Positions 2,027-56,008 of a stretch of DNA of 64,000 nucleotides are shown piece by piece. The notes below the pieces were generated by a model. The model saw only the letters and a program-made list of their open reading frames with translations, made no database searches and was not told the DNA's origin. Source of the stretch: Eledone cirrhosa. Lineage: Eukaryota. Within the stretch, counting starts at the first letter, position 1; every line of letters starts with the position of its first letter. The position numbers and the translations under genes were made by a program. Where the stretch lies: NCBI GenBank assembly GCA_964016885.1, contig OZ024743.1, positions 358,918,001 to 358,982,000 of the forward strand, written 5' to 3'.

Positions 2027-2571
<545 letters not shown>

Positions 2572-2904: not shown

Positions 2905-3102
2905 ATATATATATAAATATATATATAAATATATATATAAATATATATATAAATATATATATATAAATATATATATAAATATATATATATAAATATATAT
3001 ATAAATATATATATAAATATATATATAAATATATATATATATAAATATATATATAAATATATATATATAAATATATATATATATAAATATATATATAAAT
3101 AT

Positions 3103-3197
<95 letters not shown>

Positions 3198-3225
3198 TAT
3201 ATGTATATAAATATATATATATATA

Positions 3226-3263
<38 letters not shown>

Positions 3264-3266
3264 AAT

Positions 3267-3301
<35 letters not shown>

Positions 3302-3325
3302 AATATATATATATATAAATATATA

Positions 3326-3600
3326 AATGATTCTAATGAAATGATAGTTGAAAATAACATTGAAATATTGAGTGTCTGCATAATTAATACTTCGTAGATA
3401 GCAGCCGTTTTCAGGTTATATAACTGTTATTGAAACACGTGTCAATAAATTCCTTTTACTGAACTGTATCCATTTAAATCCTTCTATTTTCTCCGGATTA
3501 CTTTTGAAACTACAACTGGAACCGTCGAGCAAACCCTACGTGAGCTGTCCATCTACTGTGTGTAATATTCATATTACAACACTACCGAAAATACTATATT
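3326..3600 (+). mobile_element. Probable PLE pLTR fragment with HHR 3' half only
   Basis: GAAACACGTGTC (palindromic loop 3, GUC site) followed by AATAAA at ~3432-3449. No CUGANGA is found on the same strand. Flanked by (TA)n. Confidence 0.45.
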
Positions 3601-3622
3601 TATATAAATATATATATATATA

Positions 3623-3691
<69 letters not shown>

Positions 3692-3697
<6 letters not shown>

Positions 3698-4113
3698 ATA
3701 CTTTGGGAGGGTCATGTTGCCAATAAGAAACACACGCACCAGTTGCTTTCACTTCAATTTATTATATATTTATAAATTTATAAATTTACAAATCTACAAA
3801 CTTATAAATTTCTGGTTGGTTGGTTGGTTCCACAACCAGATAGTTGTTTATATATAAACAACTGGTTGGTTCCACAACCAGATAGTTGTTTATATATAAA
3901 CAACTATCTGTTTGTGGAACCAACCAACCAACCAGAAATTTATAAGTTTGTAGATTTGTAAATTTATAAATTTATAAATATATAATAAATTGAAGTGAAA
4001 GCAACTGGTGCGTGTGTTTCTTATTGGCAACATGACCCTCCCAAAGTATAACAATATCGGTTTCAACACACGATTTCAGATAAAGAATCTTGCTAAACAA
4101 ATTCAGAAACGAA
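3692..4113. mobile_element. PLE pLTR fold-back, same family as 15089-15450
   Basis: Inverted arms of about 170 nt with a ~42 nt duplication at the apex. The sequence matches the part downstream of the HHR at 15297-15342. Confidence 0.8.
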
Positions 4114-4871: not shown

Positions 4872-5160
4872 ACTTGGTCTTTCCTTATATTTAAATTTAT
4901 TTCATTCCTTGTATTTTGATCATGCTTTATTTTTATTTTTATTTTTATTTGTTTCATTCGCACCGTTTCCTTTCGCTATATGTCTCTCCACCACTCCCCT
5001 ACACACCCTTTGAACTCTGTTCCCACACACTTCTCACCTGAGGAAGGGCTTATTCCCGAAACGTCGTCCCCCACCAACACCCCACTCTCCAGTGCGTGAA
5101 ATTAAAAAACATTCGTTGTACTGCCTCTCTGTTTTGTCCCTGTTCAAATTTTTCCATTAT
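4870..5160 (+). mobile_element. PLE 3' end with HHR-like core (5038-5068)
   Basis: CUGAGGA AGGG CUUAU UCCC GAAAC GUC GUC; stem I is not obvious. A homologous copy lies on the minus strand at 47990-48245. Confidence 0.7.
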
Positions 5161-5167
5161 ATATATA

Positions 5168-5247
<80 letters not shown>

Positions 5248-5276
5248 TATATATATAAATATATATATATATAAAT

Positions 5277-5309
<33 letters not shown>

Positions 5310-5326
5310 AATATATATATATATAA

Positions 5327-5399
<73 letters not shown>

Positions 5400-5412
5400 T
5401 ATATATAAATAT

Positions 5413-5493
<81 letters not shown>

Positions 5494-5506
5494 TATATAT
5501 ATATAA

Positions 5507-5537
<31 letters not shown>

Positions 5538-5538
5538 A

Positions 5539-5588
<50 letters not shown>

Positions 5589-5592
5589 TTAA

Positions 5593-5679
<87 letters not shown>

Positions 5680-5710
5680 TATATATATATAAATATATAT
5701 ATATATAAAT

Positions 5711-5765
<55 letters not shown>

Positions 5766-5774
5766 AATATATAT

Positions 5775-6083
5775 TACTCTTTTACTCTTTTACCGGTTTC
5801 AGCCATCCGGCTGAGGCTATGCTGGGGCACCGCCCTTGTTGCTACACATTTTATCTCCAGCCTGTATAGGTTGGCCACTGGTGTAAGAGGGAATTTGTTG
5901 CTGCTGCCCTTAGGTTTCCCTCGTGTCTTGCTGTGGGCTCATCCGGGATCCTGGATAACAAGGTGTCGAGATGTTTCTTGAAGACATCCACCTCCATGTC
6001 ATGCAAGTCTCTCAGATCCCTCGGCCGCCTGTTGAAGAGCTGAGGGCCCTTGAATCCCAGGCTATTGCAATATCTGCTCCTTA
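5775..6083 (-). mobile_element. CR1-group LINE family B, 3' terminal fragment
   Basis: Matches 55927-56240. Encodes NSLGFKGPQLFN...IPDEPT...NSLLHQW, followed by a (TAAAAGAG)n tail into (TA)n. Confidence 0.92.
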
Positions 6084-6873
6084 GCAACCTCACTGAAGAT
6101 GCTCTTCAGAAGCTCCTTGGCTAGCGGTGCACTACCCAGGGAGCTGAAAGAAGGCACAATATGCCCTATCCATAAAGGAGGTAGCAGAGCGGAGGCCAAA
6201 AACTAGAGGTCAGTCTCCCTGACGTCGGATGTCAGTAAGGTCATGGAGCGAGTCGTCAGAAAGAAACTCATCACTTTCCTCGAGGAAAATGACCGCCTGA
6301 CTAGCACGCAACATGGCTTCCACCCAGGAAAAAGCTACCTTACACAGCTGCTACATCACTACGACTGGGTACTGAGACAACTACTAGACAGCTCACATGT
6401 GGACGTGATATATCTTGACTTTGCGAAGGCCTTTGACAAGGTCGACCACGGAATGATATGTCACAAACTACACGGACTCGGCATAACTGGAAAAGTAGGT
6501 GAGTGGCTGCATGGCTTCCTAAGGGACAGAAGCCAGGCAGTCGCAGCAAATGCGGCCCTCTCGAGGGAAACACCAATAACAAGTGGGGTGCCCCAGGGGA
6601 CAGTCCTGGGACCACTACTGTTTTTGGTGGCTCTCTCAGACATGCCCTCTGTAGTGCATACAACAACATCCCTCACTAGCTATGCTGATGACACCAAGGT
6701 AGCACAGGCAATCAAAAACCCGGCTGACGCTGCCCTTTTACAGCAGGATCTGGATGCCATATACAAATGGGCGGAAGAATACAACATGCAGTTTAATGCT
6801 GGCAAATTCCAAGCCCTACAATACAAACCCCCAAACAAACCTGCAAACACAAATATAGTGGAACACAACTACT
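6080..6873 (+). mobile_element. LINE family B, inverted internal RT segment
   Basis: Reverse complement of ~56745-57528. ORF 6243-6875 carries QHGF, DFAKAFDKVDH, GVPQGTVLGP and YADD. Confidence 0.92.
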
Positions 6874-6885
6874 AAGGCTATAACA

Positions 6886-8072
6886 CAACTAGACTAGGGC
6901 TATAACACCCCACTTGCCGATTTTGTAATGGGTAACCCCTGCTTGCTAAGGGAGACGTAAGATCTTCTTTTATATCTTCTTATCGCCTCCTCTATATTTC
7001 CTTCTTCCCCCCCATCCCTCCCTAGTCCTTCCACCCCAGTTCTTTTTCTTTGTCGTCGTCTTTTTCTCGCCCACCCGAGGCAGCCCCTCGGTCCTTTGTA
7101 GCCTCAGTACCCCCACCCCTTCCCCTATTCTATGATAGATTTGGCCGACTCCGCTTTTTATAGCAGATGTGTTAGACCCCGGATACTTGCCCCATTATCC
7201 GACCGCCGTCCCTTTTCCGTGCTTTCTATATTTCTTAGTGGCATCTTTGCTTTAATTTCTCGTTCATCAGTATTTTTTTGGGGGGGATTCTGAATCAATT
7301 TTTCCGTATTTTTCCGTATTTTACTTTTACTTCGTACGAGCTTTTATGTAGCTTGTACTAGAACTTTTGTATCATGGCGGTACCCTTAGAGATAGTATTA
7401 GTATTTTCGGGACTCTGAATTATTATTTCGTACTAGTTTACTTTTTTGCACTGGGTGGTTGCCGGCCTTGTGCCTGGGGTAGAAACTTTTATTAATTATT
7501 TCGTGGTAGTTTCTTTAGTTTTTTGGCCCCACACTTGTTGACCCGTCACCGTATGATATACGTACGTATACCTCTTAAAGGGTGTCTTTTTAATTCCGTC
7601 CCACCTAGTATATTTCTTTAGCCTAGCTATAGCGAGAGACTTAGGTCGTAGTAACCAGAAATTGTTTATTTTTTTTTTTTTTACATTTATTCGCTTTTCA
7701 ACACTCTCAGTATTTTTCTATTTATTTTCCCCTCATTGTTCTACTTACTGTTTCGACTTCCCCCCCTAGTATCTTCTCTGACCTCACGCCCAGCTGTAGC
7801 CGGCACTATCAATGCATGAATGGGTCTCCTCCACCCACTCTCCGTCTTTCTTCTACTGGCAGGTTTAGCTACCCCTTTCCCCACTAATTGCCCTCATAGA
7901 ATTATTATGTCTCAACTACTAACTTTTGACCAATCCCTGTGACAATCACTTTGACCATATATGGAATTACCCCTTGAGAAGCTCGGCTATTCAAATACCA
8001 GGATTAATTTTCATTTAGTCAAGAATTAGCCGTCGAAACGGCTTGAGCTCTGCCATCGGGGTCCTACTCGTT

Positions 8073-8075
<3 letters not shown>
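6886..8075 (+). mobile_element. Naiad-type PLE 3' UTR/pLTR, 5' truncated
   Basis: Colinear with 51846-53075, which directly follows a GIY-YIG ORF. Ends at the same GTTCCTA|(TA)n position. Confidence 0.85.
7969..8062 (+). ncRNA. Hammerhead ribozyme, U3-A8 core, long stem II
   Basis: ACCCC UUGAGAA [G.UCGGCUA...UAGCCGUC] GAAAC GGC..GCC AUC GGGGU. Stem I is ACCCC/GGGGU. Confidence 0.75.
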
Positions 8076-8125
<50 letters not shown>

Positions 8126-8127
<2 letters not shown>

Positions 8128-47989: not shown

Positions 47990-48245
47990 TAATGAAAAAT
48001 TGAACAGGGACAGAACAGAGAGGCAGTACGACAAATGTTTATTAAATTCACGCTCAGGAGAGTGGGGGGTAGGTGGGGGACGACGTTTCGGGCATAAGCC
48101 CTTCTTCAGGTGAGAGTTCAAAAGGTGTGTAGGGGAGTGGTGGAGAGACATATAGCGAAAGGAAACGGTGCGAATGAAAAATTCATAGAAATACAATTGT
48201 AAGAACACAGGCAAAGAATCATATACGGAAAAAAAGGGTACGGTA
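47990..48245 (-). mobile_element. PLE 3' end, family of 4870-5160 (HHR-like core 48079-48109)
   Basis: CUGAAGA AGGGC UUAU GCCC GAAAC GUC GUC. Confidence 0.75.
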
Positions 48246-49073: not shown

Positions 49074-50478
<1,405 letters not shown>

Positions 50479-50479
50479 T

Positions 50480-50660
50480 TAGTGGATAGTGCAGTTTCAA
50501 CATATGTTGATTTAAAACTGCACTATCCACAAGTGTTTTTTAGCCTTCATATCATGTTCTCCTGTTTTATCTGATGAAAACACAAATATTATTGCATGAT
50601 GATGTTTGTTTTGAAATGCGCATAATAAAATACATGGAACTCCTTTAACCATCCTTTGAT

Positions 50661-50663
<3 letters not shown>
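50480..50663 (+). mobile_element. PLE pLTR end with canonical HHR at 50565-50630
   Basis: UUUUAU CUGAUGA AAACACAAAU...AUGUUUGUUUU GAAA UGCGCA UA AUAAAA. Confidence 0.85.
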
Positions 50664-50990: not shown

Positions 50991-53075
50991 TAACGAAGGA
51001 AATGTGGTAAGGAACCAGGTGGACCATAACGCACCAAAGTACTCAATACTTGAGGTAGTAGAGTGGGTAATAGGAACCAGTAAGACCCCGACAGCTGAGC
51101 TCAAGCCGTTTCGACGGCTAATTCTGGACTAAATGAAAATTTATCCTGGTATTCAAATAGCCGATCTTCTCAAGGGGTAATTCCATATATGGTCAAAGTG
51201 ATTGTCAAAAATCAGTAGTAATTCTGTGGTTGCAAATTAGTAGGGGAGATGGTGGCTAAACCTGCCAGTAGGAGAAAGAGGGGAGGGGGTGGAGTAGACC
51301 CAATCAAGCGTTGGTAGTGCCAGCTACAGCTGTCTCCTCTAACAACAAAAAACTCAACCCCGATGGCAGAAATAACCTAATTAGCAGTGGAGAACCGACC
51401 AGGAGGTGTAACTGCCCGGATAGATCTATTTGCCCACTCGACAATAGATGCAGAGACCGTAATGTGATCTACCAGTGCAACGTGAGGACGGATACCTCCA
51501 ACAAAGCCTATATAGGACTTACCGCATGTGACTTCAAGACCCGGCTATACCAACATAGACATACCTTTCGAAACCCGGCCCGGTCACGCCACTACACTTT
51601 CGGGCCACATATGGGACCTCAAGGACAACAACATCACCTATGATCTCACTTGGAGATTACTGTCCAGAGCCAATTCTTACACGGGAGGACGCCGTCCGTG
51701 CAATTTATGCTCGGAGGAAACTTTACAAATGCTGTTTTCGACGGACCAACTCCTAAACAAGAAAGATGAACTGGTTACTGCATGTAAACATAGATTGCGT
51801 AGGACTTACCTCGCCCTCAAACCCCATAATGACCCGGGGGGGGGGTAGACTAGGGCTATAACACCCCAGTTGCCGATTTTGCAATGGGTAACCCTGCTTG
51901 CCAAGGAAGACGTAAGATCTTCTTTGTATTCTTTTATCGCTTCCTTTATTTCCTTCCCCCTCTCTCCTTTGTCCTTCTACCCCAGCTCTTCTCCTTTGTC
52001 GGCGTCTTTTCTCGCCCACCCGAGGCTGCCCTTTGGCCCCATGTAGCCTTAGTACCCCCCCCCTCCCCTAGTCTTTGATAGATTTGGCGGACTCCGCCCT
52101 TTATAGCAGTTGGCTTAGACCCCGGATACTTTCCCCCTTTTTCCGACCGCTCCCACTATTCTCTGTGCCCTCTATATTTCTTAGTGGCACTTATGCCTTA
52201 TTTTTTCGTTTCAGTATTTCTTGCTTCGCTTTTCTTCTGGGCGGGGTGGATTCTGAATTTATTTCTCCGTATTCTACCTTTATTTCGTACGAACTTCCAT
52301 GTAGCTTGTTTTAGATCTTTTAGAGTTAGCATTAGTATATATTTTTCTCGGGACTCAGAATTATTATCTCGTACAAGTTCACTTTGCTGCACTGGGTCGT
52401 TGCTGGCCCGGGATGGAAACCTTTATTGTTTATTTCGTGGTAGTCTCTTTAGTATTTTGGCCCCTTTTGTTGACCCGTCACCGTATCATTTACGTACTTA
52501 TACCTCTTAAAAGGGTCCTTGCCTTATCCGTCCCACCTAGTTCTCTTACTTATTTCCTTATTTATTTATTTATTTATTTATTTACTTCTTTCTTTCTTTC
52601 TTTATTTTATTCTCGCCTAACAATAACCTGACACATAGGTCGTTGAATTTAATTTACTTTACTTTTTTCTTTACACTTATTTGCTTTTCTTCACTCTCAG
52701 TATTTTTTCTTTCCTATTTCTACCCCCCATTGTTCTACCTACCGTTCCGACTTCCTCCCCCTCCCCCTCCCCTGTATCTTCTTTGACCTCATGCCCAGCT
52801 GTAGCTGGCACTACCAACGCTTGATTGGGTCTACTCCACCCCCTCCCCTCTTTCTCCTACTGGCAGGTTTAGCCACCATCTCCCCTACTAATTTGCAACC
52901 ACAGAATTACTACTGATTTTTGACAATCACTTTGACCATATATGGAATTACCCCTTGAGAAGATCGGCTATTTAAATACCAGGATAAATTTTCATTTAGT
53001 CCAGAATTAGCCGTCGAAACGGCTTGAGCTCAGCTGTCGGGGTTGAGCTCAGCTGTCGGGGTCTTACTGGTTCCT
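50991..53075 (+). mobile_element. Naiad-type PLE, 5' truncated, inverted 3' repeat 50991-51333; HHRs at 51085-51178 (minus) and 52950-53043 (plus)
   Basis: GIY-YIG remnant, 1.2 kb 3' UTR and near-identical inverted arms. Confidence 0.9.
51336..51848 (+). pseudogene. Naiad-type GIY-YIG endonuclease fragment with one frameshift (~51585)
   Basis: CNCPDRSICPLDNRC, VIY...YIGLT...FKTR..QH..TF / TTLSGHIWDLK, CNLCSEE, LLNKKDE...CKH. Confidence 0.88.
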
Positions 53076-55891: not shown

Positions 55892-55926
<35 letters not shown>

Positions 55927-56008
55927 CTCTTTTACTCTTTTACTCTTTTACCTGTTTCAGCCATCCGGCTGAGGCCATGCTGGGGCACCGCCCTTGTTGC
56001 TACACATT

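Follow-up and report, generated by a model that had tools for sequence, protein, structure and literature searches.

The PLEs closest to the element studied here belong to the Hydra clade, whose members carry a C-terminal GIY-YIG and the motifs DKT, RWK, CxCx5C and CxxC/CxH, do not conserve GxKF/Y, have a canonical hammerhead but no CCHH motif, and target (TA)n (Craig et al. 2021, PMC8557442). In Naiad PLEs, the endonuclease is N-terminal and precedes the RT, the motif is DKA, and a canonical hammerhead is lacking (PMC8557442). Paired PLE arms with a tail at one end have already been published in qualitative form (PMC8557442; PMC3846280), and antisense self-priming has been proposed for the formation of such inverted repeats (PMC3846280). 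Purified Poseidon PLE from anole cuts and extends both strands and initiates at two sites (Frangieh et al. 2024, PMC11167929).

Compound insertions have also been described for L1. Twin priming with internal deletion leaves the tail piece in one orientation and an inverted, non-overlapping upstream piece, joined at microhomology (PMC2912911; 10.1101/2024.08.27.596794), with a median gap of 14.5 bp between the human pieces (10.1101/2024.08.27.596794). Antisense RNA/LINE-1 chimeras and two-L1 bridges unite the 5' ends of copies of two opposite templates at one site; they are L1-driven and were validated by TSDs or tumour-normal comparison (PMC13174262; 10.1101/2024.08.27.596794). Two-RNA twin priming itself has already been proposed for L1 chimeras (PMC13174262). 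Finally, G-quadruplex-induced deletions, shown in worms lacking dog-1, span ~50-300 bp and leave a scar of end joining mediated by polymerase theta (TMEJ) with templated inserts (PMC4654259).

Here we analyse a cassette at positions 5775-8075 of a 64-kb stretch (the window; G000:C4:358918001-358982000) of the 3.0-Gb assembly of Eledone cirrhosa. Like the L1 chimeras, it joins the 5' ends of two opposite templates at one site, but it comprises two element classes with different enzymes and is known from one assembly. The cassette is real, but probably an ordinary compound insertion.

Structure of the cassette

Sequence and alignments bear out the anatomy given in the first-pass annotation: (TA)n, then the minus-strand 3' end of LINE B, a plus-strand LINE B RT piece, a templated patchwork, a plus-strand PLE 3' UTR with a hammerhead-like motif, and again (TA)n (Table 1). 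Its other structural claims stand as well, namely the absence of a TA tract between LINE and PLE, the outward-facing 3' ends with microhomology and templated joins, and the patchwork of locally templated words, the last of which ends at 6908 rather than 6907.

Table 1. Features of the cassette and of its two comparison copies, in window positions.
Feature	Position	Strand	Basis or identity
Degenerate (TA)n tract, target of LINE 3' end	5158..5774	.	left flank
LINE B 3' end, with two copies of the 8-nt tail repeat, the 3' UTR and the end of ORF2 (element 4544-4235)	5775..6083	-	95.8% to window copy 55926-60475
CTTA, 4-nt overlap of the two LINE pieces at the inversion junction	6080..6083	.	sequence
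Internal piece of LINE B from the RT domain, inverted (element 2950-3735)	6080..6872	+	95.1%; Pfam RVT_1 E 9e-26
Templated insert, alternating words of PLE start and LINE end	6873..6889	.	within period-22 x2.2 repeat 6862-6908, built from words of both flanking elements
Hydra-type PLE arm: 3' UTR from directly after the family poly-G tract to the short 3' end (without 80-nt tail)	6890..8074	+	alignments; 77% to window copy 51846-53075, <=93% to other genomic copies
Hammerhead-like motif (candidate), type I, U3-A8 core; core 7974-7980, GAAA 8035-8038, predicted cut after 8057	7969..8062	+	placed by hand
(TA)26 tract, right flank	8075..8126	.	repeat search
Comparison copy: near-full-length LINE B (APE and RT, frameshifted), between TA tracts	55926..60475	-	95% to cassette
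Comparison copy: ordinary insertion of the cassette's PLE family, a long-ended arm (minus) and a short-ended one (plus), joined	50993..53075	.	alignments

The two LINE B pieces show the arrangement of L1 twin priming, with the inverted upstream piece lying 5' of the tail piece and microhomology at their junction (PMC2912911; 10.1101/2024.08.27.596794). They differ from it in several respects: the element gap between them, measured by alignment to the 55926-60475 copy, is 500 nt (3735 vs 4235) rather than a median of 14.5 bp (10.1101/2024.08.27.596794), the inverted piece is longer than the tail piece, and the (TA)n target leaves no readable TSD. The PLE arm is short-ended, and its partner arm is absent.

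Among 40 scored genomic candidates, only the locus itself matched the LINE/PLE junction end to end, and we therefore rejected a composite family that amplifies as a unit. The LINE B copy at 55926-60475 was likewise rejected as the direct source or template, as its identity is only 95%. Elsewhere in the window (59378-63326), a 1.9-kb near-duplication that includes a LINE B 5' part surrounds a 200-N gap (61257-61456) and may be an assembly duplication. This gap-linked duplication would be compatible with the cassette being an assembly chimera of repeat copies, as would the public data: the junction is known from a single assembly and is unspanned in the four of nine public runs examined, whose fragmented contigs or RAD reads cover <=41% of its words and are uninformative. 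A chimera is nevertheless very improbable, given the unique templated insert, the 4-nt overlap, the private substitutions in each piece and the lack of an identical copy among those found.

The identity of the PLE was read from a long copy (L165) with a 719-aa ORF, which contains RWR (37), DKT (117), YRDD (348), a CxCx5C linker (572), VIYQC/YIG (591-606), corresponding to a C-terminal GIY-YIG, and CxxC and CxH (670, 688) around conserved E and N. A motif check of this ORF found no GxKF/Y, Pfam assigned it no family, and a search of the ESM Atlas matched only unnamed animal PLE-like clusters. With a single ORF, a C-terminal GIY-YIG after the RT, DKT, RWR for RWK, CxCx5C, CxxC/CxH, a preference for (TA)n and an inverted, 5'-truncated copy with a tail at one end only, the element matches the described Hydra-clade PLEs; it departs from them in having a length of ~3.5 kb where they are generally <3 kb, and a U3-A8 hammerhead core, and, in the cassette, in the replacement of the partner arm by LINE sequence (Craig et al. 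2021, PMC8557442). By these sequence features, the cassette PLE is Hydra-type. The label 'Naiad', under which it was first annotated, is ruled out by the domain order and by DKT instead of DKA, and a hammerhead-like motif is present. A candidate source locus lies at G000:C1:91474353-91488543, where the Hydra-type element forms a five-unit tandem array with a period of 3,542-3,543 bp. Another PLE family in the window (16493-18705) has a 632-codon open frame (minus) with an inverted 3' arm.

The hammerhead reported in the PLE 3' UTR is retained as a hammerhead-like candidate. Its core could be placed by hand as the U3-A8 variant, which has been reported in PLEs (PMC4209133), but Rfam returned no match for 7969-8062, neither at the gathering threshold nor at E<=10, and the free fold of the region is not significant (z -1.19); cleavage is predicted only. 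Four more hammerhead motifs were noted in PLE 3' ends of the window, at 2167-2210 (-), 5030-5070 (+), ~48090-48130 (-) and ~15300-15350 (-), the first of which alone reached the Rfam gathering score.

Ordinary insertions of the two elements

The PLE 3' motif has 33,262 matches in the genome, and an exact genome-wide pattern identified ~9,950 self-pair loci with motifs <=30 nt apart. All 65 islands with two termini of the family consist of one long end, carrying the 80-nt tail, and one short end, and the rule is kept in 43 of 44 islands of seven other PLE families. The two arms are also alike in sequence: sub-variants could be scored by pattern in 32 of the 65 islands (33 could not), and in 30 of these 32 pairs both arms are of a single sub-variant (<=1 mismatch), against 32% in shuffled pairs and a maximum of 56% in 5,000 shuffles. 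Of the two exceptions, one is a local duplication and the other a register shift. The normal insertion of this PLE is thus two-ended and tail-out, and it is made in cis from one template variant. Tail-out pairs of one long and one short end were seen in at least eight PLE families (for example window 50993-53075, L122 and L143-L146).

Such pairs fit a protein with two-strand cutting and extension and two start sites, as described for Poseidon, with which they share two 3' ends separated by the tail, an AT-rich target and the cutting and extension of both strands; in vitro, however, the start site is not strand-dependent, whereas here each insertion has one long and one short end (PMC11167929). 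In our view, strict long and short pairs made from one template favour priming of both DNA ends at two initiation sites over antisense self-priming (PMC3846280).

Some arms lack a partner. Among 26 unbiased PLE insertions, four arms are orphans, three joining TA directly and one joining a SINE. The 5' break of the cassette's PLE lies just past the poly-G run that ends the ORF, which is a recurrent breakpoint of the family. This break was found in 2 of 30 unbiased arms, and a pattern for non-G letters upstream gave 16 matches, nine of which are G-run variants and seven breaks at the poly-G site. The partners at these seven are an own arm, TA (twice), an internal deletion, another PLE family, another LINE and the cassette locus. 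L180 and L185 break at the same site and then join TA. The run has a median length of 11 G and reaches 22 (51 copies); the cassette arm starts at its 3' edge, and the run itself is lost.

The lost run could point to a later deletion, in which a twin-primed LINE B stood beside a longer PLE until a replication block at the poly-G led to deletion and TMEJ. A break that falls on the 3' edge of a G run and a junction with templated inserts resemble the scars of G-quadruplex deletions (PMC4654259), a plain 815-bp internal deletion (L171) ends at the same poly-G site, and the 500-nt gap would be explained as well. We nonetheless consider this reading improbable: the deletion in the cassette would usually have to exceed the ~50-300 bp described in worms (PMC4654259), very young orphan or hybrid arms (L198, L199, L203 and L212; 97-99% identity) suggest loss at insertion, and the rare LINE inversion would still be needed.

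LINE B, which we take from motif resemblance to belong to the CR1 group, has a tail that is matched exactly at 2,952 genomic sites. Its copy at 55926-60475 contains Pfam Exo_endo_phos (APE) and RVT_1, and its tail is an 8-nt tandem repeat. Among the first 90 copies examined, 53 stop 34-57 nt in; such tail stubs (for example L033, L036 and L037, among L031-L120) mark a strong early stop. Templated duplications are routine at ordinary 5' junctions of LINE B (8 of 80 readable ones, with one further match dropped as low-complexity), so the patchwork at the cassette junction is not special. Inversion is another matter, as none was seen at 119 other LINE B loci (the first 90 and 29 nearest relatives), in which LINE B differs from L1 with its twin priming (PMC2912911; 10.1101/2024.08.27.596794). 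LINE A likewise showed no inversion at the 50 loci examined, and no direct join to a PLE in the 35 of these that were resolved.

Mixed junctions across the genome

The first-pass annotation explained the cassette by a single lesion. In this reading, which we regard as unlikely, both DNA ends of a (TA)n break were extended on two different retroelement RNAs; in a refined form that is equally doubtful, extension would run to the left on PLE RNA and to the right on LINE B RNA, the PLE cDNA would stall at the poly-G and switch internally onto LINE RNA, and the two cDNAs would join at CTTA. A single event of this kind would account at once for the large gap, the inverted LINE piece, the break at the hotspot and the lack of a partner arm, and the bottom-strand junction alternates PLE-LINE-PLE-LINE, as expected of template hopping. 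Purified PLE cuts and extends both strands from two start sites (PMC11167929), and for antisense L1 chimeras, twin priming with two RNAs as templates has been invoked (PMC13174262). The ages of the parts are also compatible with it. The two LINE pieces, which do not overlap, are equally diverged (6/275 vs 14/733, p 0.8), and the LINE and the PLE are indistinguishable in age by private non-CpG changes (20/1,008, 2.0%, vs 12/1,109, 1.1%; p 0.11), a comparison without resolving power, by which true arm pairs differ up to several-fold.

Length-blind sharing of breaks by two kinds of RNP should make short hybrids abundant, with many short ones for each long one, since just 1,236 of the 33,262 PLE arm matches are as long as that of the cassette and LINE B stubs are common (53/90). 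Genome-wide exact-match patterns for the commonest short forms, with a gap of 0-30 nt and blind to diverged copies, found no hybrid of LINE B with the cassette's PLE family, none of LINE B with family c34 (c34, Y, V, W, U and Z are working labels), and none of the cassette's PLE family with c34, either tail-out or same-direction. The positive controls were the ~9,950 self-pairs of the cassette's PLE family, 1,657 self-pairs of c34 and the short LINE B copies next to a TA tract, 864 on the forward strand, the last a lower bound (the reverse count is inflated by overlaps). A fifth test, family Y with the cassette's PLE family, gave one match, which repeats the neighbouring genomic arm in inverted orientation with 1 mismatch in ~72 nt and is likely DNA-templated. 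At L367:1330-1720, ~72 nt of neighbouring DNA are inverted and duplicated across a short (TA)n and joined to a PLE arm, likely by fold-back synthesis from the TA end.

A tail-out bias did not emerge either. Of ~104 resolved LINE B 5' junctions, classified by hand, seven run straight into an identifiable retroelement, two in opposite orientation (L354, and L108 via a single TA) and five in the same orientation (L038, L083, L093, L098, L120); L340 and L351 join sequence that was left unoriented and stand outside this count. On these small numbers, the orientation of heterologous pairs appears random, without the tail-out excess that a recurrent class of two-RNA hybrids had been expected to show. 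The proposed comparison of head-to-head pairs with a shuffled-orientation null was rejected as invalid because in a PLE pair the outer arms invariably point outwards, and any fusion of neighbours can therefore look tail-out. Three same-direction junctions are candidates for a template switch or target deletion: LINE B into a tandem, presumably Neptune-like PLE of equal divergence (0.6%; L120), LINE B into an RT that we assume from motif resemblance, as for the Neptune-like label, to be Tx1-like (L093), and a PLE arm into such a Tx1-like RT (L186/L168).

Cross-family partners, by comparison, count in favour of the two-RNA reading. Among the 26 unbiased insertions, the long PLE arm is joined tail-out to another PLE family in three (L198, L212, L214; one further insertion is unclassified), and selected sets added L184 and L218; L354 and window 49223-50662 complete the cross-family tail-out partners. 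The last of these is a second LINE/PLE tail-out cassette, 43 kb away from the first, in which the 3' part of a LINE A (minus; 96.8% identical to L042) abuts, with no TA between them, the short arm of the Hydra-type family c34. Its PLE break is the main break or stall site of c34, and a ~20-nt inverted PLE remnant (50482-50503) is kept. In L354, the PLE appeared younger than its partner (p 0.04; 0.15 under another setting). L076, L140, L147, L160, L003 and L236 resembled hybrids at their ends but were rejected, being islands of several elements, neighbours across a short TA or fusions with other DNA.

Several hybrids nevertheless speak against a two-RNA origin. L217, which joins two Hydra-type families that are 39% identical in protein tail-out, and L229 are PLE-PLE hybrids of two short ends, contrary to the rule of one long and one short end, and L217, L354, L083, L098 and the second cassette (50482-50503) retain a remnant of their own inverted PLE arm, 14-37 nt or longer. 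Together with the absence of short hybrids in four genome-wide tests, the single template variant of normal pairs and the two opposite versus five same-direction junctions, this weakens the one-lesion reading as a regular process, although its geometry is right and it may hold at this one locus. To stand, it requires that mixing be tied to the synthesis of long cDNAs. A version restricted to long arms, which we also hold to be unlikely, is that after a long PLE cDNA the partner arm fails, the free DNA end is captured by an RNP of the other class, and the stalled PLE cDNA primes on LINE RNA; this would yield both cassettes and explain why roughly one long arm in 10 has a cross-family partner.

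Proposed sequential insertion with target deletion

In the reading that we favour, to which we give about an even chance, the cassette arose in two steps: one element entered a (TA)n tract that already held the other, and the DNA separating them was deleted by this later insertion. Of the two orders, a later PLE is the more likely, though by itself somewhat improbable, and a LINE that came second, twin-primed onto an existing PLE end, is less probable still. In the former order, LINE B would have inserted first by twin priming, with its tail primed at the left TA end, internal priming at the right end and the two products joined at CTTA. The right-hand TA would later have primed PLE synthesis at the short site, the cDNA would have stalled at the poly-G run, and no partner arm would have been made. 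The TA between the elements and part of the inverted LINE piece would have been lost before host end joining, polymerase theta-like and with templated inserts, attached the PLE cDNA to the LINE. The unusually large gap would then follow from the loss of part of the inverted piece, the poly-G break from the stall of the nascent cDNA, and the patchwork from end joining.

Support for sequential insertion comes from the way both elements normally behave. PLE pairs are made in cis (65/65 long and short; 30/32 of one sub-variant against 32% shuffled), short hybrids are absent where self-pairs run to thousands (~9,950 and 1,657) and short copies of LINE B to 864, fusions of LINE B 5' ends to other elements are seen in ~7 of 104 cases and in both orientations, and orphan PLE arms (4/26) and templated duplications (8/80) occur at ordinary insertions. 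By analogy with human twin priming, a gap so far above the median of 14.5 bp (10.1101/2024.08.27.596794) would also suggest a secondary loss. The weak point is that sequential insertion needs a LINE B inversion (0/119 elsewhere; LINE A 0/50) and, at the same spot, another rare fusion. Against it also stand the second LINE/PLE tail-out cassette just 43 kb away and the cross-family pairing of long arms (3/26), which seems more frequent than simple target deletion predicts.

If the one-event reading were true, enzymes of two retroelement classes would share one break, of which we found no description in the open-access literature. If it is a sequential fusion, the locus is what crowding in (TA)n tracts ordinarily produces. 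The strict rule of one long and one short end made from one template is a more solid lead than the cross-class reading and may matter more: with thousands of such PLE insertions, the formation of the inverted repeats becomes directly testable.
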